Part shown: one piece after another, positions 9,518-58,969 of the stretch | Layout of the letters: every line of letters begins with the position of its first letter | Numbering within the stretch: position 1 is the stretch's first letter | NCBI GenBank assembly: GCA_965645245.1 | Contig: OZ287083.1 | Coordinates: 868,001-932,000 of the forward strand | Direction: 5' to 3' | DNA: 64,000 nt | DNA from: Massalongia carnosa | Taxonomy: Eukaryota | Made by a program: the position numbers and the translations under genes | Notes under the pieces: model-generated | Database searches by the model: none | What the model was told of the DNA's origin: nothing | What the model saw: the letters and a program-made list of their open reading frames with translations, nothing else

Positions 9518-9737
9518 AATTAGAAATGATTTATGCTGGAATATTTACGAGCTTTACAAAAACAAATTTTAAAATCGATATTTCGATTACTAAAGGTTGT
9601 TACTAACACGGAGTAAAAACGGGGCAATATTGACTATACATAGTTGGGTTATAAAGGGTTGATTTATTTGTAAAATAAAACCATATCTTAAAATAGTTTA
9701 GTGTCATAACCTTAGGTTGAATACACTTAATGAATAA

Positions 9738-9773
<36 letters not shown>

Positions 9774-13836: not shown

Positions 13837-16800
13837 TCAGCGAGTAACCTGTAGTTTCTTGATTCGCCTGCGCTTTGCTTTCGGCTTTGCATCGAAATCC
13901 TGCTTCAGTTCTAAGGCTCCATCCAGATCTTTCTCTGGTACCCACTCATCATATTCTTCAGGGTATCCTACCCATTTTACCTTATAGAATATTTCCCCTT
14001 TCTCAGACCTTCTACCTATAATTTCTTCCACTTCCCATTCCTGTTCATCGTTAATAATTTCAGGTAAGGGTAGAAACGGTATATGCTCTTGACCATCTCT
14101 TCGCTTGTAAAGTTCTAGGTAAGAGACATGAAAGACCGGGTGAATTCTATAAGTCGTAGGAAGAGCAAGACGATATGCCTGCTTGCCGACTGCTTCTAGA
14201 ATGCGAAAAGGACCTAAAAACTTATGTGAAAGTTTCTTACTAGGCCTTTTTTGTTTTAGATTCTTGGCAGATAACATTACCAAGTCCCCTTCATTGAAAT
14301 CTTTCTCAAGATGTTTCCTGTTGTAGTACTTGGCCTGCGCTTCGGATACGCTTTTCCAGCGTGCCTCTAAAGAATACCTGAACTCGTGTAATTGCTTTAC
14401 TCGTTCTTTCGCAGCGGGCACCCTCTCCACAGCGACGTCGTCCCCGACTTCGTAGCGAATCTCCGGGTTATAGCCGTACATACAATAAAAGGGGCTGCAC
14501 CCAAGCGTACTTTGATAACTGACTTGGTAGACAAATTGTGCTAGGGGCAATAGTGCCACCCAGTTGGATTGATTGTCAGTGCAGTAAACTCTCAAATAGT
14601 GTTCAAGGGTCTGGTTTTGTCGTTCGGTTTGGCCATCAGTTTGAGGGTGAAAGGCCGTGCTAAGCCGGCGTTTCGTCTTTAAATGAAAACAATTTTCTGA
14701 CCAGTACTCACTGGTAAAGACCGACCCTCTATCCGATACTATGCCCTCAGGAGTGCCGAACTGTAATACTACCGATTCAAACAGAATTTCTGCAAGGTCC
14801 ACTGCATTGATTTTTTTCGTAACCGGGATGTATAGCGCCATTTTGGTATATCTATCCACAATTACTAGGCACGAGTCATAAACCCGGCCGAAACGCTTGC
14901 TAGGTGGAAACCCAGTAATGAAATCCATAGTGATTTCTTTCCAAGGACCGGAAGGACGTGGAAGCGATTGCATAACCCCGTAAGGTCGGTGCCTAGGCGC
15001 CTTCGTCCTTTGACAAATGTCGCAGGATTCCGTGTACTTCTTCACAGTCTTGTTAAGTCCTTTCCAATAGTATTTGCGGGTAAGCAACTCAGCTGTTTTC
15101 TCAGCACCAAAATGACCCGCGAGCTCGTCGTCATGATGACGCCGCAACAGCTCCGCACGAATAGATTCTTCATCGGGCACGTAAATTCTGCCACGATGAT
15201 TGAGAAGATTATTGCTATCTATAGTCCAAATTGCTTCGGGGGAGCGACCACCCTTGCGCTTCAAAGACTTAGCAACGGTCTCTCGCCTGCTAGACACGAA
15301 TGCGTCTTTCCCCTGTAGCGCCTTGATGAGTTCAAGCACTGACTTGGAAGCACTTTCCAAAGGCTTTTCTTCATCTGATAAGGCAACAGCTACAGCCCGG
15401 GGAATACATTGCGTCAAGCCGACTTCAAAAGTATCACTCTCTTCGTCAAGAGAAGTAATTGATTTAGAGGTTTCACCCTCTAAATTCTCCAGGGGTTCAA
15501 TCCCGGACGAAGCTATCTTTGAGCGAAGATCATACCTAAGTGCGGCAAGCACCGTACGAATTCCCGGCGTATAACCTACGCATAAGGAATCTATTTTGCT
15601 CAGCTTCTTTTGAAGAGTAGGCAACAATCTCGTCACCTCGGTGTTGATGCTCTGATAATCAGGGCGCCTAGACGGTGCATCGGCAGGATTGGTCTTTCCC
15701 GAGCGATGCATGATTACGAAATCATAAGCGGCTAATTTCATAGCCCATCGCGCTTGCCGACCACTCAACACCTTAATATTCATAAAACCCCTCAAATTGT
15801 TGTGGTCTGTCAGGACCTCAACGGGGTGCAGGCTACCCTCCAGGTAATGCCTCCAGTGTTTAAAACACATCACAATGGCCAGCAACTCTTGATCATGGGT
15901 TTCATAGTTGCGCTCGGCCGGTATCATCTTCCGCGAGTAGAAAGCGACGGGATGCCATTGCCCATCCTTCTGCAACTGGGAGATAATGCCAGAGATTCCG
16001 AAATCCGATGCATCGGTCTCTAGGCGAATGAGCAGTTCTGGATCGAAGTGAACCAAGATGGGCGCGCCCTGAAAGGCTTCTTTCAGCTTGCTAAACGCTT
16101 CCGCTCCTTCGGCCGTAAGATAAAAAGTACCCCTTTTTATCCCAGCCTGCATGCCTTTCAGCATGTCAGTCAATGGCCTAGTGATTTGAGAATAATGACG
16201 TATGAAACGTCGATAGAAATTGGCGAATCCTAGAAAGACCTGAATGTCTCGAAAGGACTGAAGTGCAGGCCAATCCCGCACGGTTTCAACCCGGCGTGGA
16301 TCCATAGAGATACCATCGCTGCTAATGATAAACCCTAGATATTCCACGGCCGTAGCAAAGAACTCGCACTTTTTAAGATTTGCATAGAGATCGTGTTTCC
16401 TTAGACGACGTAACACCTCTTTAACATGCTCCACATGGCTGGTTCTATCTTTGGAAAATACCAATATATCGTCCAGATAGACTACGCAGAAAACATCCAC
16501 GATCCCAGATAAAGCTTTATTGATGTAAGCTTGAAAAGTTGCAGGGGCGTTGGCTAATCCAAAAGGCATAACCATATACTCGTAGTGTCCGTAACGGGAT
16601 CGAAATGCCGTCTTCCACTCGTCGCCCTTGCGGATTCGGAGACGATGATAAGCATCTCGCAAATCCATTTTGGTAAAATAGGAACACCCGTTTAACTGAT
16701 CCAGTATCTGCGTGATAAGAGGGAGCGGATGACGATTCTTTTTGGTCACCTTATTCAATCCTCGATAGTCAACGCAGAGGCGCAGAGTACCGTCCTTCTT

Positions 16801-17601
16801 AGGCACAAATAGTATTGGTGCACCTGCAGAACTGGTGGAGTGCCGGATCCAACCCTTCGCCAGGGCGTCGTCAAGATATTCCCGAAGAGTCTTAAGCTCC
16901 GTATTCGATAAGTTGTATAAAGGACCATAAGGTGGATCACCGCCTTCTAAATCGATAGCGTGGTCACAGTCCTTGTGCGTAGCTAATTGATTGGCTCTGT
17001 CCTTAGAAAAAACATCCTGGAATTCAGCAAATTCCACAGGTATCCCCTGCGTTTCGTTGGTGTTCCGGCTGTTGTTCTCATCAACAGCGCCAACATTAAC
17101 AGGTTGTCTTTCGGAAGAAGGTGCAATGGGTTGAGCCACTATAGCATAGAGTGGTGCCCCGGAATCCAGGGTCTTCGCAAACTGTTTAGGCTTGCACAAC
17201 TCGAACATATCAGACTGAAAGCCATAACGCCAGCGCTTCGTTCCATAATCGATTACGATACCCAGCTGTTTGAGACCAGGGAGACCCAACACCAAGTCAG
17301 GGCCCTGTTTGTCAATTGCGTAAAACACGCTGGTAAAGGTGCGCTGTCGTTCCCAAGTATCCTCGAGAGCCATTACTACCTCATAAGCTCCATAGCAGTA
17401 AACCTCCTTACCATCCATGAATTGAGGAGCAGGTAGTTCGCTTTCAATAGGTCTAAGATCTGAAGCGACGACGAATCCCTGATTAATCACATTAATCTCG
17501 GCTGCTCCATCAAGCAACACTGTCGCCGGGTATTTTTGGCCTCCGCTCGTTATAGTCCCCTCAGGAATAAGGCTTGGCTCGCTTTCTACTGATCGTTTCC
17601 C
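13837..17601 (-). CDS. pol: Gypsy-1 Pol (protease-RT-RNase H-integrase-chromodomain), in -1 frame to gag
   Basis: Track ORF 13837-17520, with the frame open upstream into the gag overlap. Motifs LCVDYRGLN, YLDD, ETDAS, HHDD..GH..CDIC, SDRG, and chromodomain EWEVEEII..YKVKWVGYP..W. Confidence 0.95.
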   Translation of the reverse strand, partial: GKRSVESEPSLIPEGTITSGGQKYPATVLLDGAAEINVINQGFVVASDLRPIESELPAPQFMDGKEVYCYGAYEVVMALEDTWERQRTFTSVFYAIDKQGPDLVLGLPGLKQLGIVIDYGTKRWRYGFQSDMFELCKPKQFAKTLDSGAPLYAIVAQPIAPSSERQPVNVGAVDENNSRNTNETQGIPVEFAEFQDVFSKDRANQLATHKDCDHAIDLEGGDPPYGPLYNLSNTELKTLREYLDDALAKGWIRHSTSSAGAPILFVPKKDGTLRLCVDYRGLNKVTKKNRHPLPLITQILDQLNGCSYFTKMDLRDAYHRLRIRKGDEWKTAFRSRYGHYEYMVMPFGLANAPATFQAYINKALSGIVDVFCVVYLDDILVFSKDRTSHVEHVKEVLRRLRKHDLYANLKKCEFFATAVEYLGFIISSDGISMDPRRVETVRDWPALQSFRDIQVFLGFANFYRRFIRHYSQITRPLTDMLKGMQAGIKRGTFYLTAEGAEAFSKLKEAFQGAPILVHFDPELLIRLETDASDFGISGIISQLQKDGQWHPVAFYSRKMIPAERNYETHDQELLAIVMCFKHWRHYLEGSLHPVEVLTDHNNLRGFMNIKVLSGRQARWAMKLAAYDFVIMHRSGKTNPADAPSRRPDYQSINTEVTRLLPTLQKKLSKIDSLCVGYTPGIRTVLAALRYDLRSKIASSGIEPLENLEGETSKSITSLDEESDTFEVGLTQCIPRAVAVALSDEEKPLESASKSVLELIKALQGKDAFVSSRRETVAKSLKRKGGRSPEAIWTIDSNNLLNHRGRIYVPDEESIRAELLRRHHDDELAGHFGAEKTAELLTRKYYWKGLNKTVKKYTESCDICQRTKAPRHRPYGVMQSLPRPSGPWKEITMDFITGFPPSKRFGRVYDSCLVIVDRYTKMALYIPVTKKINAVDLAEILFESVVLQFGTPEGIVSDRGSVFTSEYWSENCFHLKTKRRLSTAFHPQTDGQTERQNQTLEHYLRVYCTDNQSNWVALLPLAQFVYQVSYQSTLGCSPFYCMYGYNPEIRYEVGDDVAVERVPAAKERVKQLHEFRYSLEARWKSVSEAQAKYYNRKHLEKDFNEGDLVMLSAKNLKQKRPSKKLSHKFLGPFRILEAVGKQAYRLALPTTYRIHPVFHVSYLELYKRRDGQEHIPFLPLPEIINDEQEWEVEEIIGRRSEKGEIFYKVKWVGYPEEYDEWVPEKDLDGALELKQDFDAKPKAKRRRIKKLQVTR

Positions 17602-18827
17602 TCCATCGGCTGGCGAGCTTTCCGTGGAGGTTTGGCTTTTCCCGACTTTGCGACGGCGTTCACACCGTGCTTCGGCTCCTTGTCGTCTTTAGGAGGGTTG
17701 GGACACTTGTTGGCGTAGTGACCCTGTTCTCCGCAGCGATAACATGTCACCTCGTCGGTACTTTCCTTTGTCTCAGCATGCTTTCTTTTCTGACCCCTTT
17801 TACCGTCTTTCGTAGGTTTTGGTTTGTCAGTGTCCTTTATCTCCTCGTTCCTCTTATCTCTATGTGATTTAGTGCGAGGGGGGTGAGAACCATTTGGACG
17901 CTCATGCTTCGACGTCGTTAAGACATCGTTTTCTCTTTTCTGATTGTTTTCCAGCCTACTGGCCAGAGTCACCAGAGCTTCTCTAGTCCTTGGAATATTC
18001 TGATAGTTGCCTATAGCTGCTCTAATAGACGGCCGCAACTTAGTAAAGAGATGAGTCGCTCTTTGTTCTTCGGTATAGGAGGGCAACTGGTCCTCGAGGC
18101 TACTCAAGTGCGCCTCGAAAGCTCTTACCGTTTGCTTCTCTCCTTGCTTGGCTTCGGCAAATAATTGGGCCATATGCAGACCTCGATTAACTGGGTCCTC
18201 GACAATATTTAACAAGAATTTCAAGTACTCTTCGAAGGTATAATTGTGCATTTCACCGTCTGCCTCATATCGATGCCAAGCTTCCTTAGGCTCCCCTTCC
18301 AGCGATTGCATTGCGAAAGCGATCTTGGATTCATCATCTGGGAAGTCCTCTTTTGCCACGCGAAACGCCACTCTGCAGTTCCGCTCATAATCCAGATGTT
18401 CCTTGACCGTTTTTCCATGATAGGGACTGACTTTCTCGGGTCTAGCAGCGCGTCTCCTGTAAACAACTACAGGTACTGACTGGCTACTCGTCATCTCTAC
18501 ATCGTCGTCAGAACGAGGGTTAATGGCTCCTCTCATTACCGGTTCCTTGGATGATCCGGTAGGGTTTGGAGGTTTCGAAGGCTTTTGAGTTTGTTCTTGC
18601 AGTTGCTCAATACTGGCTTTCAAATTCCTCAGACGTACTTCCTTCTTAAGTTCGCTACGCCTGCGCTCAGCTTGCGCTATCTGTTCGTCCAACGTCAGGG
18701 GTTGAATGGGTTCGACTACTTTTTCCATTGGGGTCAGGGCTCCTCTTCCAGGGCCCTCAGAATCCGAAAGTTCTTCGATCCGCTCCTCCGGCATCATGGT
18801 ATCAGAGGCAACTTCTTGCGCGGACAT
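17586..18827 (-). CDS. gag: Gypsy-1 Gag (413 aa)
   Basis: Capsid-like region and CCHC knuckle CYRCGEQGHYANKC, lying between the 5' LTR and pol. Confidence 0.93.
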   Translation of the reverse strand: MSAQEVASDTMMPEERIEELSDSEGPGRGALTPMEKVVEPIQPLTLDEQIAQAERRRSELKKEVRLRNLKASIEQLQEQTQKPSKPPNPTGSSKEPVMRGAINPRSDDDVEMTSSQSVPVVVYRRRAARPEKVSPYHGKTVKEHLDYERNCRVAFRVAKEDFPDDESKIAFAMQSLEGEPKEAWHRYEADGEMHNYTFEEYLKFLLNIVEDPVNRGLHMAQLFAEAKQGEKQTVRAFEAHLSSLEDQLPSYTEEQRATHLFTKLRPSIRAAIGNYQNIPRTREALVTLASRLENNQKRENDVLTTSKHERPNGSHPPRTKSHRDKRNEEIKDTDKPKPTKDGKRGQKRKHAETKESTDEVTCYRCGEQGHYANKCPNPPKDDKEPKHGVNAVAKSGKAKPPRKARQPMEGNDQ

Positions 18828-18904: not shown

Positions 18905-19442
18905 TGTAAGAGTCAGACCTGGCGATTAGCAGACACCAGGCCTAGGGATATGTGACAATGTGAAGACACTAATGATTTGCTATACTAATATACTAAATGA
19001 AGTATGTAGGTAAAGCGGAAGACTAATCGTTGAAGATTGCATCTCCCTCGAGCAGCCTCCTTATATACCCGGACCGAAGCCCTTGACCCTCTGGGCCCTT
19101 GATACTGTAACTATCTTGACCGCCCATTACTCCTACCGGATAAGCCGGCTAAACACTCTGCTGACTGCATCGTGGACACTGTGCTGACTGTATCGTAGAC
19201 ACTTTGCTGACTGTATCGTAGACACTGTGCTGACTGTATCGTGGACACTGTGCTGACTGTATCGTACCATCCGCTCACTAATCGTACGAGCATCCTCGTA
19301 TATCTCGATCGCTCGTGCTATACTCTCGGCAGTAGATACCAGCCGCGTAACGCAGACCAACTGCTTTCCATATGACTAAGCCTAGCCGTAGAACTAAGGC
19401 CCGCTTAGTTAGCTTAGCCCTTATTCCTTCTATGCCCTGACA
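18905..19442 (-). repeat. 5' LTR of Gypsy-1
   Basis: Direct repeat of 12822-13359. TATATAA on the minus strand at 19061-19067. Confidence 0.97.
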
Positions 19443-44364: not shown

Positions 44365-45269
44365 TAGTAGTATCGATATTTTGTTTCATGTTTTGAATTT
44401 CATCGAAATAGTGAAAGCAATTCAATAACAAGTGTTCTGGCGTTTGTCGTTGATTGCATCGATTTGTGCATTTTGACGAATTATAATCTTTCAATCGATG
44501 TAAATATGATCGAAAATAACCGTGTCCGAATTTTAATTGCATAATAGTGGCAAATATCAATTTGGAGTAGTTATTTGATAAATAATAAAAACTCGATATG
44601 TCAGGTTGCATTTCGAATTTCTCATAGTATTTGCCTTTCGATTTGCATTGTTGCCATTGATTCGTCCATGTAGTAAGCATATTTTGATTTATTTGATCTT
44701 TAACATAGTCAAATGATATCGCCGAGGACTCGACTAGGATTCCTTTATTTCCCGTCTTTGCTGTTTTGTCTGCAATTTCGTTTTCGGTAATTTTCGAATG
44801 ACTCAGAATCCATTGCAAAATCACCTGATAATTGCTTTCAAATAAGCGTTTTGCGAGCTTTCGAATTTGTCTTGCAAAAATATGATTTGTCAAGTTCTGA
44901 ATTTCGTTTATCGCCTTTATGCTATCAGAAAAAATCTATTTCGTTTTTTCTAAGTTCGATAAAATATTAGTATCGACAATTTATAGACCCATTTCATTGC
45001 TTGTAAAATGGCATGCAGTTCAGCATTTTTAATGCTTGACTGTTTGCTTAATTTCCAGCTTTTCGAAATCGTATGATACTTGATCAGACAATCCTTTTCG
45101 ATAAATCGATCAAAATTATCAATAATATTATTCTAATTCCGCAAAATTGGTGCAAATGTGACTGCAAACGTTGCAAATTCGATTCTTGATCCATCCGTAT
45201 AAAGTAAAACTCGGGATTTATCGGACTTCATTGATTGAATTTTTGATAAGGTCGAATAATAACTTGATT

Positions 45270-45638
45270 GATTGATTGATTTATTCTTATTCCGATATGA
45301 CACCGGCCGAAGGCCGGCCCATGCGGGCTGTCTATGTTTATCATACAAGGAAAACCCTTCTTGGGAATAAAAACCCCGTAGACTACTCACTACCTCCGGA
45401 GCCTCGCTGGCAACAGGCTGCTCTCTGTGATCGTTTTTCTTTAGAATCCTTGACGAAAATGAGAAGTTATATCTCGTATAACATTTGCGATGCTAGTGAG
45501 AACTGTGTTAACAAGTTTGCTTTTATTATCCATGCAGTTAGCTTTTTCAGCAATTTCGACGAACGCGTAATCGTCCGGTAGTCGTGGGTGCCCAATTGTC
45601 TGAGCAGCTCATATCTGCCTTCGATTAGTCTGCAGTGT
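45270..45638 (-). mobile_element. 369-bp 3' fragment of an unrelated LINE with (AATC)n tail
   Basis: TSD gaataataacttgatt (45254-45269, 45639-45654). Encodes an ORF2-like C-terminus HC...TAWIIKANLLTQFSLA, then AATAAA and aatc repeats. Confidence 0.82.
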
Positions 45639-46701
45639 GAATAATAACTTGATTTTACAGATTCTTTTGTATTTTCGATTTGAAATTCGATTTTACATGA
45701 CGATTTCCAAGGTTTAATGAAATGATTTAATGGTTCAAATTCATCAGTTTTGTAAACTATGTCAGAAACGGAATGAAGAACGCAAATAAGCTGACTAGGG
45801 TGTCGTTTATTTGTCTGTTTTTCATCTTCGTTCCATTCGGCATATTTGTTGTTCCATAAGCTAGTGTCAAAACCGATGTTTTCATATTTTATCGAATATG
45901 TGTTTGGAATTCTTTGACAAATGGGATTATTTTCGGCAATCTTCAATAATCGAAGTTTGACTGGTAAAACATGTGATTCAATTTCCATCCACTGAACAGG
46001 TGTGGTTTTGAAAGTTCCTAAAATTTTCCGAATCATTCAATTTTGCAAATTCTGAAATAGTTTTTCATATTTCTTTTGACCATTATACCGAAATTCTGAA
46101 CCGTAGTCCGAAAATAGGAACAATGCATGACAAATAGAGCTGTCTGCATGCGGTCGGTTTCAGACCCCATTCGGATTTCATCAAATTCTGAATTGCAAAA
46201 AATGATCGATTCGCAGAAGAGATTCGCGTTTCGACGTGTTTTTTGAAATTTAGTTTTCGGTCTAGCCAGACGCCCAACCATTTGACTACATTTTTCGGTT
46301 CTAGTATTGTCCCGTTTGGTAATTCCAATGGGTCTTCCGATACATTTCTTGTCTTTTCGAAGTGAATCAGCTCGGATTTATCGTCATCAAATTTGACATT
46401 ATTCGATGCGGCCCAATCAAAAGCTGTTTTGACTATGATTTCGATTTCTTTGCAATTTTGTTTTGCAGTTTTATTTTCGACATATATTGCAACATCGTCA
46501 ATAAAACTGGGAGAATGTGCATTAAATTTCATTCCTATTTTCGGAAACAAGTGACGAATGTAAATCAGAAATAGAATAAGCGAGATTGGTGAACCTTGTG
46601 GAATTCCTGATTCGATAAAATATGTTTTGCTTTTGTTTTCATCGAATATTAAATTGATCGATTGTTTTGTCATGAAATGCTTAACCTATTGAATTATTAT
46701 G

Positions 46702-47216
46702 TGTAAGAGTTAGACCTGGCGATTATCAGAGACCAGGCCTAGGGATATGTGACAATGTGAAGACACTAATGATTTGCTATACTATTATACTAAAAGAAGT
46801 ATGTAGGTAAAGCGGAAGACTAATCGTTGAAGATTGCATCTCCCTCGAGCAGCATCCTTATATACCCGGACCGAAGCCCTTGACGCTCTGGGCCCTTGAT
46901 ACTGTAACTATCTTGACCGCCCATTACTCCTACCGGATAAGCCGGCTAAACACTCTGCTGACTGCATCGTGGACACTGTGCTAACTGTATCGTAGACACT
47001 GTGCTGACTATATCGTGCACACTGTGCTGACTGTATCGTACCATCCGCTCACTAATCGTACGAGCATCCTTGTATATCTCGATCGCTCGTACTATACTCT
47101 CGGCAGTAGATACCAGCCGCGTAACGCAGACCAACAGTTTTCCATATGACTAAGCCTAGCCGTAGAACTAAGCCCCGCTTAGTTAGCTTAGCCCTTATTC
47201 CTTCTATGCCCTGACA
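46702..47216 (-). mobile_element. Solo LTR of the Gypsy-1 family (515 bp)
   Basis: Homologous to 12822-13359 but one 23-bp unit shorter. TSD ttatg (46697-46701, 47217-47221). Confidence 0.96.
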
Positions 47217-49230
47217 TTATGCGAGTTAATTTCAGCTTTTTCATGACATTTAGCAGTTGATTAATCGAGACAAAGTCAAATGCGCCTTTTACATCGAGTA
47301 ATAAACAGGATAAAACGTTTTTATTTCGATTCGCAATTTCGTTATCATGAACGAGGTTCATTACTGCGTCAATTGCAGAATGATTTTTGCGTCCGCCCAT
47401 CTGTTCGATATCTAGTAAATTCGAATTTTCGCCGAAGTAGGCTAGTCGATTTGCAACGATTTTCTCAGCAATTTTACCAAGACAATTTAGTAATGTGATA
47501 ATTCGATATGATTTTGGTAGCGAATAGTCTGATTTATAGGTTTTTTCAGAACTGCACCGAGTCCTGTCCGCCAGCATAACGGGTGATAACCGATTCGAAT
47601 GAATTTCGAATAAATCATGAAAAACCCGTTATTCAACGATTGAAACGATTTTTGAACAATTGTAAAATTGATTGCATCAGGTCCACATGCTTTCTTCGGA
47701 TTAAATAAATTAATCGCATTTTGCAGCTCGTTTTCTGTCAAATCCGGCCAATCATCATCATTTTCGCTGTCTTGATTTGGTAAATCTTCGAAATTATCGT
47801 CTATAAATGGGTTCTTATTGTACATTGCTGACACAAACGCATCGCATTTGTCATCAAACTGAACATTAAGCTTATTTTCATGTATAATCGGCGGTATTCT
47901 TTCGAATATGTGCGGTTTAGTATATTTATACGCGATAAACACGTCTTTATTTGCTGCATTTTCTAGAAAAGTCAACTAGGTTTGTTGTTTTGCTTTTCGA
48001 ATTGCATGAAAATACTCGATTCGACTATGTTTAAACGTCCGATGACTACGGATAATTCTTCCATTCTCGACGATGCCTGCACATGATTTTTCGAAGTTCG
48101 GTTAAATCTTGCGACCACCAATTTTTCGATTTTGTACATATTTTTGTTTTCGGAATAAACATTTCAGCCGCGTTTTTGATAATTTTTTGCAAATGTATCG
48201 CTGATTCGTCGAATTGATGATTATTCAATAAACTTTAAACTTTTGATTCGTAGTTGATTGAATTTTCGTCTAGAAACTTCGCGAATTTATTCCAATCGGC
48301 TTTATTGCAATTATATTTATTCGATAATGCGGTTGCATGTGACGTCAAATTCTTGAAAGATGCGATTAGTTCAAATCGGATGACTTCATAATCTGAACCT
48401 GTGACTGCGTTTTCACCGATTGCCCAGTTTGTAATTGCATTTTCGATTTTAGAATTTGCAAATGTTAAATCAATAACAGATAATGAACTTCCAGAATGTG
48501 CGTAGAATGAACATAAATCAGGTGTGTTTATCAAACTACATTTGTTTATTTTCAACCATTTGACTAAATTTTCTGATCGAATTACGAGTTGAATTTTTGA
48601 ATTCCACCAGTTATGATGTGCATTGAAATCTCCACAAATGACGAATTGATTAGTTGATGTAGGTTGATATTTGATTAAAAGTCGATCGATCGGGTATGTT
48701 TCTCGATCATTTTGACTTTTTTCGTTATAAATATTGAAAATCTGTACTTTTCGAACTTCATCAATTGTAATTTCAATAATTTGCATATCGGAATCGTCAA
48801 TAAGATCTATTCTAGGCGTGCATTACAGTTTGGGATTACATTTTGTGACAAATATAGCTACTCTCGAGCGATATGTCGCTATTTTCGGCATAATGCATGT
48901 AAATGACGGATGTGATATTTTTTTTTGATCTCGTGTCCATGGTTCCTGAAACAAAACAATATCAATTGGATTTGATAAAGTATATTCCAAACACGAAGTC
49001 ATTGCATTCGTTGACCTTCCACAGTTGTGTTGAATAAATTTGACATTGTGAGTATTCTCTATATTTGCCAACGAATGCTGTCCTGCCATTATAAGGCGGA
49101 TAATTCGTCAGCCGATTTTCGTGGATTTAATGCAGTAAATATTTCACAATGTTCATCATTTGATTGATGATTTTTAAGGCAGTTTGCATATATCACAACA
49201 ACGTGTGCACACGCAGTTTTCGATTTGCAT

Positions 49231-52200
49231 TTTTTTATTTTATTTATTCATTAAGTGTATTCAACCTAAGGTTATGACACGAAACTATTTTAGGATATGT
49301 TTCTATATTACAAATAAATCAATCCTTTATAACGCATCTATGTATTGTCAATTTTTCCCCATTTTTACTCCGTGTTAGTAACAACCTATAGTAATCGAAG
49401 AATATCGATTTTAAAATTTGTCTTTGTAAGTTCGTGAATGTTTCAGCATAAATCGTTTCTGATTTTACTTTTCGATGTCTCCCTAACCTCCAGTTTCGAA
49501 AATCTCGTCATCAAGCTGACCTAGTATCTATTTTCTTGTCGCGATTTTGTTATTGACAATGAATTTAATCAAAATGTCATTTCCGATTTTAGTATTAAAC
49601 AACATATTCAAATTGATCGTAGTATCGATATTTTGTTTCATGTTTTGAATTTCATCGAAATAGTGAATGCAATTCAGTTACAAGTATTCTGGCGTTTGTC
49701 GTTGATTGCATCGATTTGTGCATTTTGACGAATTATAATCTTTCAATCGCTGTAAATATGATCGAAAATAGCCGTGTCCGAATTTTAATTGCATAATAGT
49801 AGTTATTATCAATTGGAACAGTTGTTTGATAAATAATAAAATCTCGATATGTCAGGTTTCATTTCGAATTTCTCGTAGTATTTGCCTTTTGATTTGCATT
49901 GTTGCCATTGATTCGTCCATGTGGTTAGCATATTTTGATTTATTTGATCTTTTACATAATCATATGTTATCGCCGAGGACTCGACTAGGATTTGATTATG
50001 GCCTGTCTTTGCTATTTTGTCTGCAATTTCGTTTTCGGTAATATCTGAATGACTCGGAACCCATTGCAAAATCACCTGAAAATTGCTTTCAAATAAGAGT
50101 TTTGCGAGCTTTCGAATTTGTCTTGCAAAAATATGATTTTTCAAGTTCTGGATTTCGTTTATCGCGTTTATACTATCAGAAAAAATCCAAATCGTTTTTT
50201 CTAAGTTCGATAAAATATTAGTATTCGACAATTTATAGACCCATTTCATTGCTTGTAAAATCGCATGCAGTTCAGCATTTTTAATGCTTGACTGTTTGCT
50301 TAATTTCCAGCTTTTCGAAATCGTATGATACTTGATCAGACAATCTTTTTCGATAAATCGATTAAAATTATTGATAATATTACTCCAATTCCTTATAATT
50401 GGAGCAAATGTGACTGCAGACGTCGCAAATTCGATTTTCGATCCATCTGTATAAAGTAAAACTCGGGATTTATCGGAGTTCATTGATTTAAAATTGGATA
50501 AGGTCGGATAATAACTTGATTTAGCAGATTCCTTCGTATTTTCGTATTGAAATTCGATTTTGCAAGGCGATTTCCAAGGTTTAATAAAATGATTTGCTTG
50601 TTCAAATTCATCAGTTCTGTGAACTATGTCGGAAACGGAATGAAGAACGCGAAGAAGCTGGCTAGGATCTCGTTTATTTGTTTGTTTTTCGTCTTCGTTC
50701 CATTCGGCATATTTGTTGTTCCATAAACTTGTGTCAAAACCGATATTTTCGAATTTTATCGAATATGTGTTTGGAATTCTTTGACACATAGGGTTATTTT
50801 CGGCAATCTTCAATAATCGAATTGCGTATTTTTGATTTTTCATTAATAATCGAAGTTTAACTGGTAACACATGTGATTCAATTTCCATCGCCTGAACAGG
50901 TGTGGGTTTGAAAGTTCCTAAAATCTTTCGAATCATTTGATTTTGTAGGTTCTGAAATAGTTTTTCATATTTCTTTTGACCATTATACCAAATTTCTGAG
51001 CCGTAGTCCGAAATAGGAATAATGCATGACATATAGAGCTGTCTGCATGCGGTCGGTTTCAGACCCCATTCGGATTTCATCAAATTCTGAATTGCAAAAA
51101 ACGATCGATTCGCAGAAGAGATCCGCGTTTCGACGTGTTTTTTGAAATTTAGTTTTCGGTCTAACCAGACGCCCAACCACTTGACTACATTTTTCGGTTC
51201 TAGTACTGTCCCGTTTGGTAATTCCAATGTGTCTTTCGATATATTTTCTTGTCTTTTCGAAGTGAAGCAGCTCGGATTTATCGTCATCAAATTTGACATT
51301 ATTCGATACGGCCCAATCAAAAGCCGTTTTGACTATGATTTCGATTTCTTTGCAATTCTGTTTTGCAGTTTTATTTTCGACATATATTTCAACATCTTCA
51401 ATAAAACTGGGAGAATGTGCATTGAATTTCATTCGTATTTTCGGAAACAAGTGACGAATGTAAATCAGAAATAGAATAGGCGAGATTGGTGAGCCTTGTG
51501 GAATTCCGGATTCGACATAATATATTTTGCTTAAATTTTCATCAAATATCAAATTGATCGATCGTTTTGTCATGAAATGCTTGACCCATTGAATTATTAT
51601 GCGAGATAATTTCAGCTTTTTCATAATATTTAGCAGTTGATTAATCGAGACAAAGTCAATTGCGCCTTTAACATCGAGTAATAAACACGATAAGACGTTT
51701 TTATTTCTATTTGCAATTTCAATATCATGAACAACGTTCATTACTGCGTCAATTGCAGAATGATTTTTGCGTCCGCCAATCTGTTCGATATCGAGTAAAT
51801 TCGAATTTTCGCCGAAGTAGGCTAGTCGATTTGCAACGATTTTCTCAGCAATTTTACCAAGACAATTTAGTAATGTGATATTTCGATATGATTTTGAAAA
51901 CGAATAGTCTGATTTATTAGGTTTTTTCAGAACTGCACCGAGTCCTGTCCGCCCGCATAACGGGTGATAACCGATTCGAATGAATTTCGAATAAATCATG
52001 AAAAACACGTTTTTCAACGATTGAAACGATTTTTGAACAATTATAAAATTGATTGCATCAGGTCCACACGCTTTCTTCGGATTAAATAAACTAATCGCAT
52101 TTTTCAACTCGTTTTCGGTCAAATCTGGCCAATTATCATCATTTCGGCTGTCTTGATTTGATAGATCTTCCTCATTATCGTCAATAAATGGGTTTTTTGT

Positions 52201-55088
52201 ATACATTGCTGACACAAATGCATCGCATTTGTCATCAAACTTAACATTTAGCTTGTTTTCATGTAGAATCGGCGGTATTTTTTCGAATATGCGCGGTTTA
52301 GTGTATTTATACGCGGTAAATAAATCTTTATTTGCTGCATTTTCTAGAAAAGTCAACCATGTTTGTTGTTTTGCTTTTCGAATTGCATAAAAATACTCAA
52401 TTCGACTATGTTTAAACGTCCGATGACTAAAATCGGACGGATAATTCTTCCATTCTCGACGATGTCTGCACATGGTTTTTCGAAGTTCAGTTAAATCTTG
52501 CGACCACCAATTTTTCGATATTGCACAAATTTTCGTTTTCGGAATAAACATTTCAGCTGCGTTTTTGATAACGTTTTGCAAATATATCGCTGATTCGTTG
52601 AATTGATGATTATTCAATAAACTTTGAACTTGTGATTCGTAGATGGTTGAACTTTCGTCTAGATACTTCGCGAATTTATTCCAATCGGCTTTATTGCAAT
52701 TTTATTTATTCGATAATGCGGTTGTATGTGACGTCAAGTTTTTAAAAGATGGGATTAGTTCAAATCGGATGACTTCATGATCTGAACCTGTGACTGCGTT
52801 TTCATCGATTGACCAATTTGTAATTGCATTTTCGATTTTAGAATTTGCAAAAGTTAAAACAATAACAGATGAAGAACTTCCAGAATGGGCGTAGTATGTA
52901 CATAAGTCAGGTTTCTTTATCAAACTACACCTGTTTAATTTCAGCCATTTGACAAGATTTTCTGATCGAATTGCTTGTTGAATTTTCGAATTCCACCAGT
53001 TATGATGTGCATTGAAATCTCCACAGATGACGAATTGATCAGTTGATTTAAGTTGTAATTGGATTAAAAGTCGATCGATCGTGTATGTTTCTCGATCGCT
53101 TTGACTTTTTTCGTTATAAATATTGAAAATCTGCACTTTTCGAACTTCATCAATTGTAATTTCAATAATTTGCATATCGGAATCGTCAATAAGATCCGTT
53201 CTAGGTGTGCATTGCAGTTTGGAATTTCCATTTGTGACAAATATAGCTACTCTCGAGCGATAAGTCGCTATTTTTGGCATAATACTTGTAAATGACGGAT
53301 GTGATATTGTTTTTTGATATCGTGTCCATGGTTCCTGAAACAAAACAATATCAATTAGATTTGATAAAGCATATTCTAAACACGATATCATTGCATTCTT
53401 TGACTTTGCACAATTATGTTGAATAAATTTAACATTTTGTGTATTTTCGATGTTTGTCAACGAATGCTGTCCTGCCATTACAAAGCGGCTAATTCGTCAT
53501 TCGATTTTCGAACATTTAACGATATAACCATTTCACAATTTTCATCATTGGATTGATGATTCTTGTTGCAATTCGCGCATTTGACGACGACGTGTGCACA
53601 AGCAATTTTTTACTTGCATGTTGTGCATTTGTAACGGTTCGACCAAGCGTGGTGCGGACGGCAGGACCTACAGCAAACATAGCAGGAGACCCAGTAATAG
53701 TAGAATAGAGCTTGGTCTGCGGACTAAGTATTGTGCCTTTTGGTCGGGAAGGACAGGTGGCGCAATGGTAGAAATCTATTCACTATCTCGCTTCGTCACA
53801 GAATACTTAGTCATCAATCGGTGTACTAGTCGTGAGTTCGATTCCTGACCTGAGTTCCTCGCTTTTTCGCCTTGCTTCGACGGACTGAAGCTAGGACGAA
53901 ACGGGAAAGCGTTGGATGAAAACTCTCTAAGTCGGATCGGCGAGGGCGGTACGCTAAGAAGAGCCCATTCTTCGGGGCTAACTATAACTGGAAGCGGCTA
54001 GGGGCTAGCCGCAGCTAGACGGGCGGTAGTGTAACGGTTCGACCAAGCGTGGTGCGGACGGCAGGACCTACAGCAAACATAGCAGGAGACCCAGTAATAG
54101 TAGAATAGAGCTTGGTCTGCGGACTAAGTATTGTGCCTTTTGGTCGGGAAGGACAGGTGGCGCAATGGTAGAAATCTATTCACTATCTCGCTTCGTCACA
54201 GCATTCATGATTGCGTGTTTCATGGTTTTGCGCACATATGCTGCATTTCGCTTGACTTTTGCATTGATAATGCTTGTGTCCAAATTTTTGACAATTAATG
54301 CATTGTGTGTTTGGACGAACGGAGGTAAATATTTCCGTGTCACAATGTCGGCCCGCGATATTGACTCCTTTTAACGCGTTCAAGGCCATATTTCGATCAT
54401 TGAATGTTAAAACAACGGATGATTTGATCTTGTTATGACGATCACGTGCTAGCCATCTGGGAACATCGCATAATTGCATGTTCGAATTGAACTTTTGAAT
54501 TTCGTCTTGCAAATATTGCATGTTTTCATCAAATGTTGCAATATTTACACCGTGTGCGACGACTTTGAACCACGATTCGTCCTTTCGAACTGTTCGTGGG
54601 TCGAATAAATGCTCCCATACTGATTTATTGTTCAATAAATCTTCAGCAGTGTTATCAGGACTAGTAGTCAGAACGATGTTTTGACCCGTTTTGGACTTTT
54701 CGACCGTGTTAACAACGATAGTCAATTTCGCGTTTTTAAAAAGCGAATTGATTTGATTTCGAAGCAACAGTGAATCGATATCGCCGATTTGAGCTTTCGG
54801 TGTGATTATCAATCGTCGAGATTTGATCGCCTTGAAATCGTCAGTATTATCGAATTCGTTCGCATTCGAATTATTGTTGTTGTTCTTGTTTGTTTTTTTG
54901 GATCGAGGAACGGTAGTCCAATTTTCGGAATTGACAGTCGCTTTTCCGAGCATTTGGCTTCATGTTCTAGCTGTATCGTTGACCTGCGGCCCTGGGACTC
55001 CGGCGGTTTCGCTCCGAATTTCTGGGTTGACGTTTTTAGTCAAATTCGAATTTCCATTTGAATTTCCCTTCGATTTTGTCTGTACAGG
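49231..55088 (-). mobile_element. LINE subfamily B, truncated within ORF1
   Basis: Poly(T) at 49231, frameshifted ORF2 (52702-53478, 50983-52617, 49809-51320), ORF1 part to 55088 interrupted by the TRIM. Confidence 0.93.
53630..54200 (+). mobile_element. TRIM-like non-autonomous LTR element (571 bp)
   Basis: Two identical 171-bp TG..CA repeats (53630-53800, 54030-54200), 229-bp non-coding interior, TSD gcatt, purine-rich tract before LTR2. Confidence 0.93.
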
Positions 55089-57183
55089 CTAAGAATGATA
55101 AAATAGAGTTGACATCTCCTTCGTGAAGTCTCTATCCCAGTTTTCGTTCATCTCACTGGTGCGTTTTACGGCCCAAGACTATTGATGAATTCTACGATTG
55201 GGGTGAACGACGTCCCATTCGCCCAGGTCAAACCCAGTTTACTCCTTAAGCATATATCAAGGGCGAGTCTAGCCGTAGCCCATGTGCCGGCGAACCGACG
55301 GGGTCTCGTTACGAGTGAGATAGACATTCCCTGCTCTTTATACACCTACATGCGCATACTGTCCTCTCGGGCTATGCAGACGGTCTCCGTACGGTGGCCG
55401 CCATTGCATACCACGCCTCACGGGATTTTTACGCCCACTTCGCGTTATTCATAAAGGTCTCCCGTTTATGAACCGACTATGTATCCCAGGGATTTCGACA
55501 GCTATGCTCCTGACCAGGCAGTATAGTATCGATTTTCCGTCCCTACTAACCAAAATAAGTCAAGGACAACTCGGAGGGATGCTCGTTTGAAATTCGTCTA
55601 TTAGCTCAGGGCCTAGACTGTTATCAATTAACGGGTTCCTCGTATATTGCCCTCTTCTTGTCCCAAGGGTGTCCTATTTGATGACTAGGTTGCCTCCACC
55701 ATCCCCGGTACGACTCCGGTTCGGGCCGTGTTGCTCACGGTAGCCATCAATCGGATGGTTTTCATAACCCAAATCCCTTGTATCATGTAGGGTGTGACCC
55801 TACACTATGTGTCTATATGTTTTATTTCTTTCAGCCGGAGGGCTCCGTGTTGTAGACGAAGGAGACCCGTGTGATAGACATAGCTGACCCGTGTCCTACG
55901 TCTTTAGCTCTCAGCCGATGACTGCATGAAAGGACTTGAACCTTTAAGAGTATGACCGAACGTTGTTAACGAGGTCTATGAAAATCTTATTAACGAGGTC
56001 TTCGAGAACAATATTAACGAAGTTCCGCTGAACTCTTTTCATTCGTTTTGTGATCCATCGAGGTCTACCCGTGTCAAATCCACACCATGCCCGTGTCAAA
56101 ATACATTATTTTCAGCTGATGACTGCTAGAAAGGACTTGAACCTCTAAAAATATGTACTCCGATATTAACGGGGTGCAGATCTGTCTTAACGAGCCCCCG
56201 CAGAACCCCCTTCACAGGGACGTGTTATTGGTTTGTGACTGTGTTTTTTGTAACTGTGTGTTTTGTGACTGTGTGTTTGTGACTGTATGTTTGTGACTGT
56301 GTGCTTTTTGACTATCTGCTTTGTACAACGTGTGATTGATGACTATGTGTTTTGTGACTTTGTTTTCCTCGATTTTATTTAACAGGCCGGGCCTATTAAA
56401 TGGGATATTGTTATTCTGCTCCGAGATGGAGTTTTCTTGAGGTGACAGCATTCGCCCCGGTGCCTTTACGCGTTCTGTTGATCCCAGCTGATGACTACAT
56501 GGGGAGACTTGAACTCTCAGTAGCTAGAACGCGTGTCGACTGTGCCCGGGTGGGGGATGATGCGGCTCCTTTGGTCCACATCTTCTTCCAGCTGATGACT
56601 GCATAAAGGGACTTGAACCCTTAGAAGCATGGTGCAGGGACGAGCGCATTCTACCCCCCCGGCGGTTGGCCTTCGTATCCTCTTCCGTACGTACGTCTGT
56701 GACGCGTGTGAACGCGTTAAATTAGCATTGTTTTGATGCGAAGAGATAGGAGCAAATCTATGTTTGACGGTCGCCCCACGGTGAGGCCTTTGGCGTCTCC
56801 ATGGTGAGGACCGATGGTGTAGAAGGAGGAGGACCGATGGTGTAGGCTCGTCCGTCTCGAGTCTTATCTGTATCGATTTCTGATATTCAGCGGTGAAAAG
56901 AGCTCAGAATATCAGGAGAACTGTTTAGGAAATGATATTTAACTGCATTGCTCTCGAGTGCAAGATCGTTTACTATCAAGCTTTTCCATTGTATCATAAG
57001 AGTGGAAAAGGTTGCAAGCTGATCGTTGGATCTCGTAGACCTGAAGCCTGCTCAATCACGAGGGAAGGCACATTATAAACTCAGAAAGACACCATAGTCG
57101 GTCGATGCAAGGCTTGAATACTCTCAATGAAACCCTATTCTGAAACCACATTCGAAAAATCAAAGGACGGAATAGAGTAGTAG
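55089..57183. other. 2.1-kb unassigned, apparently non-coding segment with repeated B-box/T-arm modules
   Basis: No similarity to other elements here and visibly less AT-rich than the LINEs. Four copies of cagcYgatgactRc..acttgaa. Lies inside a LINE TSD. Confidence 0.7.
56232..56366. repeat. Degenerate minisatellite (tttgtgactgtgtg-like, about 14-16 bp units)
   Basis: Repeated tgtgactgtgt units seen directly. Confidence 0.85.
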
Positions 57184-58626
57184 TTTCGATTTGCATATTA
57201 TGCATTCATGATTACGTGTTTCACGATTTTGTGCACAAATATTGCATTTTGATTTGTTTAGACACTGATAATGCTTGTGTCCGATTTTTTGACAATTAAT
57301 ACATTGTGTATTCGGACGAACGGAAGTAAATATTTCCGTGTCACAGTGTTTTCCCGCGATATTTACGCCTTTTAACGCGTTTAAGGCCTGATTTCGATCG
57401 TTAAAAGTCAAAACGACCGAAGAATTGACTTTATTTTCGCGGTCTCGCGCTAGCCATCTGGGTAAATCGCACAATTCCATGTTAAGGTTGAATTTCTGGA
57501 TTTCATTTTGCAAATATTGCATATTTTGATCAAACGTTGCAATATTTACTCCATGTGTGATCACTTTAAACCAGGATTCGTCTTTTCGAATTCTTTGTGC
57601 ATCGAACATATGTTCCCATATAGATTTGTTTTCCAACAATTCTGCAGCAGTATTTTTCGAACTAGTAGTGAGAACGATATTCTGACCGGTTTTCGATTTT
57701 TCGACCGTGTTGATTACGATATCTAACTTCGCGTTGCTGAATTGCGCGTTGATTTGATCTCGAAGTTTCAATGAGTCGATATCGCCGATTTGAATTTTTG
57801 GTGTAATTATCAGTCGTCTGAGTTTGATTGCATTTAATTCGTCGGTTTTGTTGAATTTGTTCGAGGTTTGACTCGAATTTTTCGATCTGGAAACAGTGGT
57901 CCAATTTTCGGAATTCGCAGTTGCTTTTCCAAGCATTTGACTCCAGGATGGAGGCGTGTTATTGACCTTTGTACTCGTAACCCCGGCGGTTTCCTTTCGT
58001 GCGTTCGTGTTGACGACTTTATTTGGATTTTCAGTCGTATTGACTTGTTGAACCCGAGTCGATTTTCGCGTTGTTTCTGAGGTTCGATTACTAGTCTGAT
58101 CAATTACCTTGTCCAATTTCCAATTCATCATGTCTAGTGTTGTTTTTATATTAATTGATTTTTTTGTCAATAAGGAATTGACATTATCAATGACTATTGC
58201 TGTTTCTGGATTTTGATCTAAGACAAATGACTTCAATAACGCGGTTTTAGCCGTTTTGAGTAATCCAATCGATTGTGCTCGAATGATTGCTTCTTGGCTT
58301 TCCTCTACTCGTTCGTCCAATGTTTTTCGTTTGTTACGTTTGATAGGCGGGCTTAATTCTATAGAATTTTACGATGACATGGGTAGATTGGTAGTAAATT
58401 TTCCAGATGAGAATTTGGTTGCTTTTGGGGTCGGCGTAGTCGGGGCGGACGAATATTCATGTGATTGATCCATAGGCTCGTCAAGTACAGTCGATTTTTC
58501 TATAAGTCCTACTGACGAGAGCCCCGGAGATTCAATTTGGGGAGGGTTTTGAGGAGTGCTCAGGGGTGTTCCCGGGGAGGCTTTCGATATAATTCGTCGA
58601 GTCCTAGGGAGTACCGGATTGAACAT
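57184..58626 (-). pseudogene. LINE subfamily C ORF1 (C-terminus displaced to 49090-49230)
   Basis: ORFs 58369-58626 and 57160-58320 are homologous to ORF1. The reading ..HECIICKSK resumes at 49230. Confidence 0.9.
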
Positions 58627-58969
58627 GATTTAATAAATAAATCGATATGCCTTTTCAATATCCCTTTTATCACCACCAAATAATTTATTCTGATGTTCCC
58701 CGGACGTACTAATCAGAATAGAAATTTACACCAATTACAGGTCTAACGACTCTTGCTTTCTTATCCCTATTTATATGACAATAACTCGTCAAATAAATCC
58801 TAATCGGGTTAAAATAGACCGTTCCTCGCTTAGGCAGTAAATCTTATTTAACCCTTTACCAGACACTACAATAGCTGAAAATAATGAAAGGTTTTTTTTT
58901 ACTTTTTTGCGATAAAAATAGATCTTAGGCAATGTAAGATAATAAGAGACTTCCTATTCTGATTAATCT

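Follow-up and report, generated by a model that had tools for sequence, protein, structure and literature searches.

Chimeric retroelements in which a non-coding sequence stands in front of a truncated long interspersed nuclear element (LINE) are already in print for one fungus, Magnaporthe, in which MINE consists of a full-length, 1.1-kb non-coding sequence, WEIRD, fused to variously truncated MGL LINEs (PMC2104539). According to the sections of that report drawn on here, MINE is flanked by 10–20-bp repeats, also occurs in tripartite forms and is attributed to template switching by the LINE reverse transcriptase (RT), with GCC*A/U as the switch motif; the same sections report neither WEIRD relatives in other genomes nor an RNA structure, and they cite U6 small nuclear RNA (snRNA)-L1 and other mammalian LINE template-switch chimeras (PMC2104539). 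The DNA analysed here, a stretch of 64,000 nucleotides from Massalongia carnosa (contig OZ287083.1, positions 868,001–932,000; hereafter the window), carries four tRNA T-arm-like modules, which the first-pass annotation had read as an array of RNA polymerase III (Pol III) units or a multi-headed short interspersed nuclear element (SINE). The modules are neither independent units nor a free-standing SINE, being internal to one non-coding unit of ~1.77 kb, the head, that is fused to a LINE. It can be stated with high confidence that the anatomy is that of structured modules inside the portable head of a chimeric, LINE-borne element, and a chimeric retroelement of the MINE/WEIRD type, with such modules in a portable non-coding head fused to truncated LINEs, is considered the probable explanation.

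The likeness to MINE is one of architecture. As in MINE, so far as the cited sections describe it, a 5' part that is non-coding and stops at a constant point is followed by a LINE truncated at many sites, target-site duplications (TSDs) are present (12 bp in the window, 13 bp in L023, one of the metagenome loci treated below), tripartite forms occur, heads of the L014 type measure ~1.1 kb as WEIRD does, and no similarity to known RNAs is seen. Unlike MINE as described there, the present family is widespread in metagenome contigs and possesses covarying T-arm modules together with a large structured domain, and the window junction is without GCC*A/U. Two 20-nt WEIRD primers (PMC3978060), which are two short primers only, gave no match with up to 5 mismatches, and their matches with 6 mismatches were at chance level. 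The U6 snRNA-L1 chimeras are similar in that the copy of a cellular or foreign RNA lies 5' of a truncated LINE, with a TSD. Their 5' parts, however, are known RNAs of short length and such chimeras are dead ends, whereas the head family is itself amplified and its 5'-truncated chimeras show remobilisation.

The window is crowded with transposons, including several non-LTR (long terminal repeat) elements with APE endonuclease, RT and RNase H, Ty3/gypsy elements and DDE transposases. A full-length LINE, copy B (3500–9764, plus strand), was used as a ruler in a self-comparison of the window. Measured against it, a host LINE on the minus strand is split into a 5' half, fragment F (57184..58885, equal to B 3655–5375), and a 3' half, fragment D (44367..49229, match from 49233 down, equal to B 5360–9363 and itself interrupted), with a 7.95-kb insert between them (57183 to 49230, minus strand). 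The insert consists of three parts, namely a leader (57183–56854), the head (56853–55088) and LINE E (55087–49230). Fragment F ends with ...ATGCAAATCGAAA, and after the A-rich tail AATAAAATAAAAAAA fragment D restarts with TGCAAATCGAAAACTGCG. A 12-bp TSD, TGCAAATCGAAA, is found on the minus strand at the end of F (5' copy, 57184..57195) and at the start of D (3' copy, 49218..49229); it is made of the sequence of LINE F/D, it brackets leader, head and LINE together, and removal restores a contiguous LINE. The uninterrupted F|D junction is present in contigs of other assemblies, with loose ends at 57184. Leader, head and LINE of the window are one insertion into another LINE, in agreement with the earlier suggestion that the modules were spread by the LINE machinery.

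LINE E (49230..55087, minus strand) starts in the middle of open reading frame (ORF) 1 and continues through APE, RT and RNase H, all in frames that are now broken, to the A-rich tail. Its identity to copy B is 85% in ORF2, and the full-length window copies B and C, both 85% identical to E, have a different 5' untranslated region (UTR) that is without modules. The leader (56854..57183, minus strand, ~330 bp), which forms the 5' end of the inserted unit according to self-comparison and contig mapping, is low-copy or single-copy in assemblies X3 and X4, lies in X4 on a 4008-nt contig ending at the LINE F junction, and has no similarity to the metagenome loci; a third template, or 5' read-through from the source locus, would fit as its origin. 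LINE E also holds a 571-bp insert (53630–54204), composed of a ~400-bp unit and a 175-bp partial second copy (53630–53804 against 54030–54204, 99.4% identical). This insert is situated at B ~5355, within ~20 bp of the ORF1 site that was hit by the head-LINE unit, and the zinc-knuckle region of ORF1 may be an insertion hot spot. The LINE 3' tails vary by clade, being A-rich in the window (AATAAAATAAAAAAA, 49230–49250) and (TAAT)n or (AAT)n in the L023/L003 family (L023 oriented 5670–5695, L003 oriented ~2680–2700).

All four modules are co-oriented on the minus strand, which is the sense strand of the LINE, and each is built of a 5-bp stem, a TTCAAGT loop, the other stem strand, 4 nt and then a fixed motif (AGTCATCRGCTG; GCAGTCATCRGCTG). 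The pattern GGTTCAAGTCC-N6-GYAGTCATCRGCTG with up to 3 mismatches was found at 55912–55942, 56113–56143, 56485–56515 (2 mismatches) and 56589–56619, the places originally noticed, and nowhere else in the 64 kb, while none of 100 shuffled windows gave any match; the fixed 12-mer alone, with up to 1 mismatch, occurs at the same four sites against 0.25 expected. The loop-to-motif spacing is fixed, since all four modules fit one ungapped pattern, and it is kept in 45 relatives (alignment A2 is gap-free). Module 1 (55873..55980, 71.8 bits in the covariance model described below) is of full form, with a helix P0 of ATAGAC/GTCTAT, the CGTTAA word, helices P1 and P2, the T-arm-like AAAGG TTCAAGT CCTTT, the mini-hairpin CAGTCATCGGCTG and the ACACGGG word. 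Module 2 (56076..56182, 65.6 bits, −12.2 kcal/mol) is likewise a full form, with P0 (GATCTGCACC/GGTGTGGATT), both words, P1, P2, T-arm and mini-hairpin. The short forms are module 3 (56466..56536, 55.6 bits, −14.5), in which a perfect 9-bp P1 (ACGCGTTCT/AGAACGCGT) is formed, and module 4 (56570..56640, 67.5 bits), with P1/P2, the T-arm AAGGG TTCAAGT CCCTT and the mini-hairpin. The stems are as first quoted, that of module 3 (GAGAG/CTCCC) holding one A.C mismatch. The motif of module 3 reads GTAGTC (at 56497) where other copies of the family have GCAGTC, and the majority letters of related assemblies bring modules 3 and 4 back to consensus.

Each module has the 5-bp stem, the 7-nt loop UUCRANY and the G53–C61 closing pair of a T-arm. 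The B-box consensus (GGTTCGANTCC; GTTCRANNC) is matched by all four and by the consensus of the 45 relatives, as had been proposed. A D-loop-like ggtagaatgcg is indeed present upstream of module 4, but it aligns with a GGGAGGGTAGTAGAGAC-like, G-rich block that precedes the first module of other heads, and it does not belong to a tRNA fold, ARAGORN predicting 0 genes and Rfam giving no tRNA at E ≤ 10. Modules 1 and 2 had been placed in a degenerate duplication of about 200 bp, of which BLAST aligns only ~44 bp; both are nevertheless monomers of the full form that agree in their flanking words and outer helices.

Relatives were collected by scanning public metagenome contigs once with the motif, which yielded 46 loci, many of them on contigs of 20–600 kb; every locus contains modules by construction, because the scan was motif-based. 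A relaxed search gave 108 instances in 83 distinct contexts, and 109 instances were reduced to 46 representatives with less than 85% identity, of which L001:3097-3211 was dropped for its degenerate loop and 45 were aligned (A1). The covariance model that the first-pass annotation had called for (R1) recovered only the four modules in the window, at 55.6–71.8 bits with the next best match at 8.6, and 96 further modules in 37 metagenome loci. ORFs near the loci encode a GH20 hexosaminidase, a DUF3723 protein and an NPHP3_N/DUF7791 protein, neighbours that we take to be typical of filamentous fungi, and the loci look fungal. The JAABU* loci (L002–L044) show dense C-to-T and G-to-A differences between head/LINE copies (for example ATCGTTAAG against ATTATTAAG and ACACGGGC against ATATAGGC) within flanks of ~80% A+T, a pattern that looks like repeat-induced point mutation.

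Each module proved to be the core of a domain of 70–110 nt in which the helices P0, P1, P2 and the T-stem covary. Compensating stem changes, for which the four window copies provide weak evidence, are strongly evident in the 45 non-redundant relatives, so that the additional copies do covary and the view of the modules as tRNA-T-arm-like structured RNA units is borne out. RNAalifold predicted from these relatives the closing helix P2, the T-stem and an invariant 4-bp mini-hairpin within the fixed motif. In this 13-pair structure 93.7% of the cells are paired, compared with 82.0% in column shuffles (reached by 0 of 500, a control inflated by common ancestry, as discussed below) and 40–59% when the partners are slid by 1–3 columns; double-change cells number 109 against 34.7 expected, and the covariation score was reached by 0 of 500 shuffles. 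The G TTCAAGT C core is invariant or nearly so in the 45 sequences. P0 and P1 were tested free of alignment because their lengths are too variable for MAFFT. Own flanks paired in P1 with a mean of −7.66 kcal/mol against −4.08 for swapped flanks, and in P0 with −6.56 against −3.55 kcal/mol (0 of 5000 permutations in either case), the P0 test covering 26 distinct flank pairs. These came from those contexts, 54 of 83, in which the two conserved words enclosed by P0 are both present, CGTTAAKAC upstream and ACACRGGC downstream. Among the variable helices G.U pairs outnumber A.C pairs by 37 to 15, and the structure is therefore read on the strand chosen in the first-pass annotation, which is the LINE sense strand.

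The modules are thus modelled as folded RNA domains on the evidence of covariation, in which helices P0-P1-P2 close a three-way junction carrying a hairpin of tRNA T-arm form (G TTCAAGT C) and the invariant mini-hairpin CAGUCAUCAGCUG. The T-arm is joined to its closing helix via its 5' strand, which is the mirror image of the arrangement in tRNA, and its conserved partners are P2 and the mini-hairpin. A pseudoknot between CAAG of the T-loop and the following CUUG was considered and rejected, as the linker is unconserved (CATG, CTAG and TATG in the window) and sterically too short.

The head (55088..56853, minus strand) is multi-copy in related assemblies. This was established by mapping contigs of four public runs onto the window; the public runs carry about half of the window's sampled words, and one run is labelled lichen metagenome. 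The stretch from 55087 to ~56850 was covered by 3863 X1 contigs, of which 1804, 1420, 521 and 118 have identities of 99+, 95–99, 90–95 and <90%, respectively. Summed depth over the head is several-fold to tens-fold that of the flanking 330 bp (56916–57167), which has single-contig depth in X3 and X4, and other copies differ in sequence past 55087/55089 and past ~56845. At its 5' end the head has 23-nt tandem units (CTACACCATCGGTCCTCCTCCTT, 56806..56853, minus strand), the number of which varies between copies (joints 56845 to 56806), and at its 3' end the fixed terminus ...CATTCTTAGC. Between modules 3 and 2 lies a 15-nt tandem array of 8.9 copies of the CACAGTCACAAA type (56232..56363, minus strand), with joints that skip 102–186 nt; it is a variable insertion within the head, since contigs of other copies shorten or skip it. 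The 5' part is common to other heads as well, which begin, directly after the flank, with 1–5 tandem units (23–29 nt), followed by a block with the word ATATATAGAGCAG, ACGCGT repeats, the G-rich block and the first module; one head family has 183-bp tandem monomers. The TATA-like word ATATATAGAGCAG is conserved ~60 nt downstream of the tandem units (L014 ~145, L024, L031, L046, L018 ~2680), its window counterpart at ~56760 being degenerate (ACATAGATTTGC); it cannot be an upstream promoter element of the full head RNA, because it lies downstream of the retroposed 5' end.

Two blocks of the window head (about 55816–55656 and 55554–55174) align at about 67–75% DNA identity with nearly all loci. 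The first of them, conserved block A (55656..55816, minus strand), is 72–76% identical to other heads. Block B (55161..55561, minus strand) is the 3' structured domain of the head, ~400 nt with long invariant runs, stops in all frames and 12 predicted helices, in which 35 of 79 pairs show compensatory changes, several invariant G.U pairs occur and 93.8% of the cells are paired against 85.8% in shuffles and 31–46% with slid partners, figures that apply to a structure predicted from the same alignment. The head as a whole is non-coding: in the window and five loci, each of the three sense frames is interrupted by stops. Small ORFs that follow it (L011 3822-4268, L001 3613-4122) gave no Pfam family, and that of L001 overlaps the conserved non-coding block before it enters RNase H sequence. 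A 3'-end pairing CCAAGG/CCUUGG was discarded, as it is unconserved in the L004/L011/L015 family and absent from the RNAalifold prediction. Heads with 183-bp monomers (L002, L005, L008, L019, L021, L030, L032 and others) contain a second, partial set of the 3'-domain motifs (GACACGGTCGGCC, GGGAGACCTCT, GTAACGCGAAAC, GGCGTGGTATATAATGG) ~100–400 nt upstream of the first module, and the structured 3' domain is hence duplicated within one head.

The clearest sign of a chimeric origin is found where head and LINE meet. Read from an invariant word of the 3' domain, 26 heads stop at the same point, ...YYTTGGC (...CATTCTTAGC at 55088 in the window), and diverge at once thereafter; even 14 near-identical heads of one family have 12 different continuations after this terminus. 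By tblastn with the window LINE proteins, ORF2 similarity was detected in 15 of the 46 loci (12 if the duplicate or overlapping L013, L028 and L029 do not count separately). It invariably follows the modules in the same orientation, neither upstream nor antisense similarity having been detected, and queries derived from the loci revealed LINE similarity in 8 more. The LINE part, 0.7 to >5 kb long with coding sequence included, starts in ORF1 (window), before APE (L008, L019, L021), in RT (L015, L006, L022, L014, L033, L046, L044, L023) or in RNase H (L001, L004), and a contig of organism C has the same head as the window and then 441 nt more LINE. The RT/APE proteins behind similar heads are only 28–67% identical to one another and 23–35% identical to that of the window LINE.

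Chimeras, too, undergo copying. The 5' truncation of L023 and L044 falls within the head, and in L023 a 13-bp TSD of AT-rich flank encloses the 5'-truncated head and the LINE, the second copy standing directly after the (TAAT)n tail; the 13-mer match arose by chance in 10 of 2000 shuffles, and no head sequence follows the LINE tail in this locus. In L001 the host GH20 gene follows a short LINE tail. Candidate TSDs in L044, L003, L018 and L001 were internal or chance matches, and within 6 kb only that of L023 was resolved among the loci.

Besides the RNA structure, then, the window and its relatives display a fixed head end with variable LINE junctions, TSDs and the 5' truncation of chimeras, and the match to MINE is drawn because a fixed 5' partner, variable LINE breaks, TSDs around the whole unit and the lack of head sequence after the LINE tail are common to both. 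According to this probable explanation, the 7.95-kb unit of the window, with leader, head, LINE and A-rich tail, would have been inserted by target-primed reverse transcription. The LINE RT, on reaching the end of a truncated LINE template, would jump to a free head RNA at its 3' end. The head would give otherwise dead-on-arrival LINE copies a portable 5' end with an internal promoter and RNA functions, and the chimera could then be transcribed and remobilised via its LINE 3' tail. Several points weigh against this explanation. No master gene was seen among the sequences, and the free head RNA is a postulate; the 330-bp leader 5' of the window head is not predicted by a simple two-part model, the LINE-side junction of the window is without the GCC*A/U motif reported for MINE, and a complete ORF2 N-terminus after the head in L008, L011, L019 and L021 also fits a native 5' UTR. 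The loci, moreover, come from one motif-based scan to which module-free heads are invisible. As for the structure, related sequences share ancestry, so that the shuffle controls overstate significance, a weakness that the slid-partner control does not have, and the single-sequence fold z-scores of modules 1–4 are modest (sense −1.38, −2.35, −2.55 and −0.03), for which reason the case for a module structure is founded on covariation and not on stability.

Any function of the modules is argued from analogy. A role at the RNA level is favoured, in which they would act as mimics of the tRNA T-arm or elbow and be bound to the LINE ribonucleoprotein or to a host factor for tRNA binding, and the invariant neighbouring hairpin could supply the partner normally bound by the T-loop, completing a tRNA-elbow mimic. 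Such binding would make the head RNA a preferred jump partner and would explain why it is joined to LINE cDNAs. Pus4/TRUB1 reportedly recognise T-arm mimics in mRNA by the motif GUUCNANNC in a stem-loop; the module hairpin G-UUCAAGU-C would fit both motif and stem-loop form, although, unlike those mRNA targets, it is set in a conserved three-way junction. A specific RNA-level binding role of this kind is proposed with low confidence.

It is less probable that the head belongs natively to one LINE lineage as its 5' UTR, with a monomeric build as in mouse L1 and with junctions produced by internal deletions or recombination, and on balance this is regarded as unlikely. The head is always 5' of the LINE and co-oriented with it, the four loci with a complete ORF2 N-terminus are as expected of such a UTR, and L015 resembles an internal-deletion derivative of an L011-like element. 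Deletions, however, predict two variable sides, whereas the head side is exact to the nucleotide in 26 heads and the LINE side varies; even the copies with full ORF2 N-termini continue differently after ...TTGGC, and in place of a constant continuation into ORF1 there are the 12 continuations among the 14 copies of one head family. The head is, furthermore, conserved far more than the proteins behind it, and the closest full-length relatives of the window LINE, B and C, carry another 5' UTR. The mouse L1 5' UTR is composed of tandem monomers of ~200 bp, variable in number, which are promoter DNA and belong to one LINE lineage; to our knowledge, no covarying RNA fold is known for them. The 183-bp monomers of one head family resemble these and speak for a native UTR, but, unlike the mouse monomers, heads occur on LINE bodies only 28–67% identical in protein. 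For the copies with complete ORF2 N-termini themselves, a native 5' UTR is possible.

The modules may instead be mainly DNA elements, namely putative B-boxes that bind TFIIIC, either in the internal Pol III promoter of a SINE-like transcript or as boundary sites, which we regard as improbable. Every module matches GTTCRANNC, a retroposed unit needs an internal promoter, and 8 of 15 heads are without a run of four or more T (T4+) in ~0.6–1.2 kb. Yet an A-box (TRGCNNAGTGG) ~30–60 bp upstream was found for only one of the four modules (module 3, 56547–56537, with 2 mismatches), which is at chance level (196 window matches against 149 expected), no T-run follows the 3' end of the head, the window head itself holds five T4+ runs, and the LINE parts of up to several kb have many. 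A raw count of 11 T4+ against 56 A4+ runs had looked striking, but the depletion disappeared against dinucleotide-matched shuffles and a LINE-body control: heads hold 14 T4+ runs where 20.4 are expected, LINE bodies 82 where 105.9 are expected, and hence there is no head-specific depletion. The Pol III or SINE reading of the first-pass annotation is only partly supported, with the B-box match and the logic of an internal promoter in its favour. P0, P1, P2 and the invariant mini-hairpin are conserved or covary outside any B-box, which requires an explanation at the RNA level and would not follow from TFIIIC binding to DNA. By its consensus match, the B-box of the modules may additionally bind TFIIIC on the DNA.

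Very improbable is a role of the modules as self-cleaving ribozymes, or as RNase P/Z signals, that trim read-through transcripts, a variant of the processing signals that had been suggested. Invariant junction and loop nucleotides between covarying helices would suit a ribozyme, CUGAUGA occurs on the antisense strand, and there is a precedent at the 5' ends of LINEs, a hepatitis delta virus (HDV)-like ribozyme or Pr77 being said to stand at the 5' end of L1Tc, NARTc and R2. Like Pr77, the head is a conserved structured RNA at the 5' end that is common to autonomous LINEs and non-autonomous derivatives; unlike Pr77, it is much larger, contains several repeated modules and matches no ribozyme model. 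No Rfam ribozyme or tRNA model was matched at E ≤ 10 in the window head or at E ≤ 1 in nine better-preserved heads, the ribozyme families covered being hammerhead, HDV-like, twister, hairpin, pistol, hatchet, VS and GIR1. A hammerhead was considered from the antisense CUGAUGA together with CUGAAGAG and GAAAC at the head 3' end, but no correctly ordered GAAA completing the core was found near the modules by eye, and the hammerhead-like words of the head 3' end form the loop of a covarying hairpin. An RNase P/Z minihelix is not formed, because the T-arm is attached in mirror-image topology. Efficient cleavage at the modules is unlikely, since in retroposed copies each module still has its flanking sequence on either side, and cleavage in the heads as in Pr77 is unlikely because upstream sequence is retained.

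It is highly improbable that site-specific LINEs of the R1/R2 kind have used the head as a multicopy genomic target, inserting at one fixed site with variable 5' truncation. A fixed upstream end followed by variably 5'-truncated, co-oriented LINEs is exactly the pattern of such elements, but the window TSD is LINE F/D sequence that brackets leader, head and LINE, the AT-rich TSD of L023 brackets a truncated head and the LINE with no head resuming after the tail, and in L001 the short LINE tail is succeeded by the GH20 host gene.

The notion of decayed tRNA genes, or of a tRNA-derived SINE array, lying beside a LINE by chance can be set aside as barely credible in spite of the perfect T-arm form and the G-rich GGTAGAATGCG upstream of module 4, since ARAGORN predicted no tRNA in either the window or the 44 loci scanned, Rfam matched no tRNA (at gathering score, at E ≤ 10 on 55000–57200 or at E ≤ 1 in nine heads), acceptor, D and anticodon arms are lacking, and the modules share one unit with fixed ends in which the partners of the T-arm are P2 and the mini-hairpin. 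The head does resemble tRNA-derived SINEs in combining a tRNA-like element with a B-box at the 5' end and a LINE-derived 3' part mobilised by the LINE machinery; unlike them, it has no cloverleaf and no A-box, its modules are serial, it is 1.1–1.8 kb long and its LINE parts include coding sequence. An ancient tRNA origin of the T-arm itself is possible. More generally, no Rfam family reached its gathering score in the window, the search at E ≤ 10 on 55000–57200 returned only a spurious SpR10 match (29.9 bits against a cut-off of 50, outside the modules) and a bxd_5 fragment, and the nine better-preserved heads gave nothing at E ≤ 1.

Tentatively, a wider proposal may be put forward, in which the head represents a widespread, unrecognised class of ascomycete structured RNA, with tRNA-elbow-mimic modules and a 12-helix domain of ~400 nt, of which WEIRD would perhaps be one member. 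Such an RNA might parasitise or cooperate with LINEs of very different clades and define its own 3' end, possibly by self-cleavage or by processing directed by the 3' domain; template jumping would then turn truncated LINEs into transcribed, remobilisable elements, and the head would be a portable 5' end moving between lineages. In the literature consulted, neither the breadth of the head family, nor its conservation above that of the LINE proteins, nor the architecture of T-arm modules and 12 helices was found described, and the literature on fungal non-LTR elements with tRNA-like or ribozyme features did not describe the modules or the fixed 12-mer.

The 5' ends of LINEs are usually the fastest-evolving and least understood part of the element. 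The head is a non-coding 5' unit that is better conserved than the RTs behind it, contains a T-arm mimic and is common to divergent LINE clades. Through it MINE and WEIRD, a 20-year-old oddity reported from one fungus only, become a general phenomenon that can be tested, and for the study of LINE template jumping it offers defined helices to mutate, a defined 3' end and many natural junctions. Module and 3' domain are two candidate RNA families, both absent from Rfam, and the head can serve as a practical marker when chimeric repeats are annotated in fungal genomes rich in repeats.

Elsewhere in the window, 23-bp tandem arrays containing CAGCACAGTGT, which surfaced as periodic A-box-like matches, were observed at 13070–13172, 19153–19255 and 46950–47029. 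Two of them flank the ends of a Ty3/gypsy element (ORFs 13837–18827) and one more lies inside LINE D; the arrays probably represent repeats internal to LTRs and a solo LTR.

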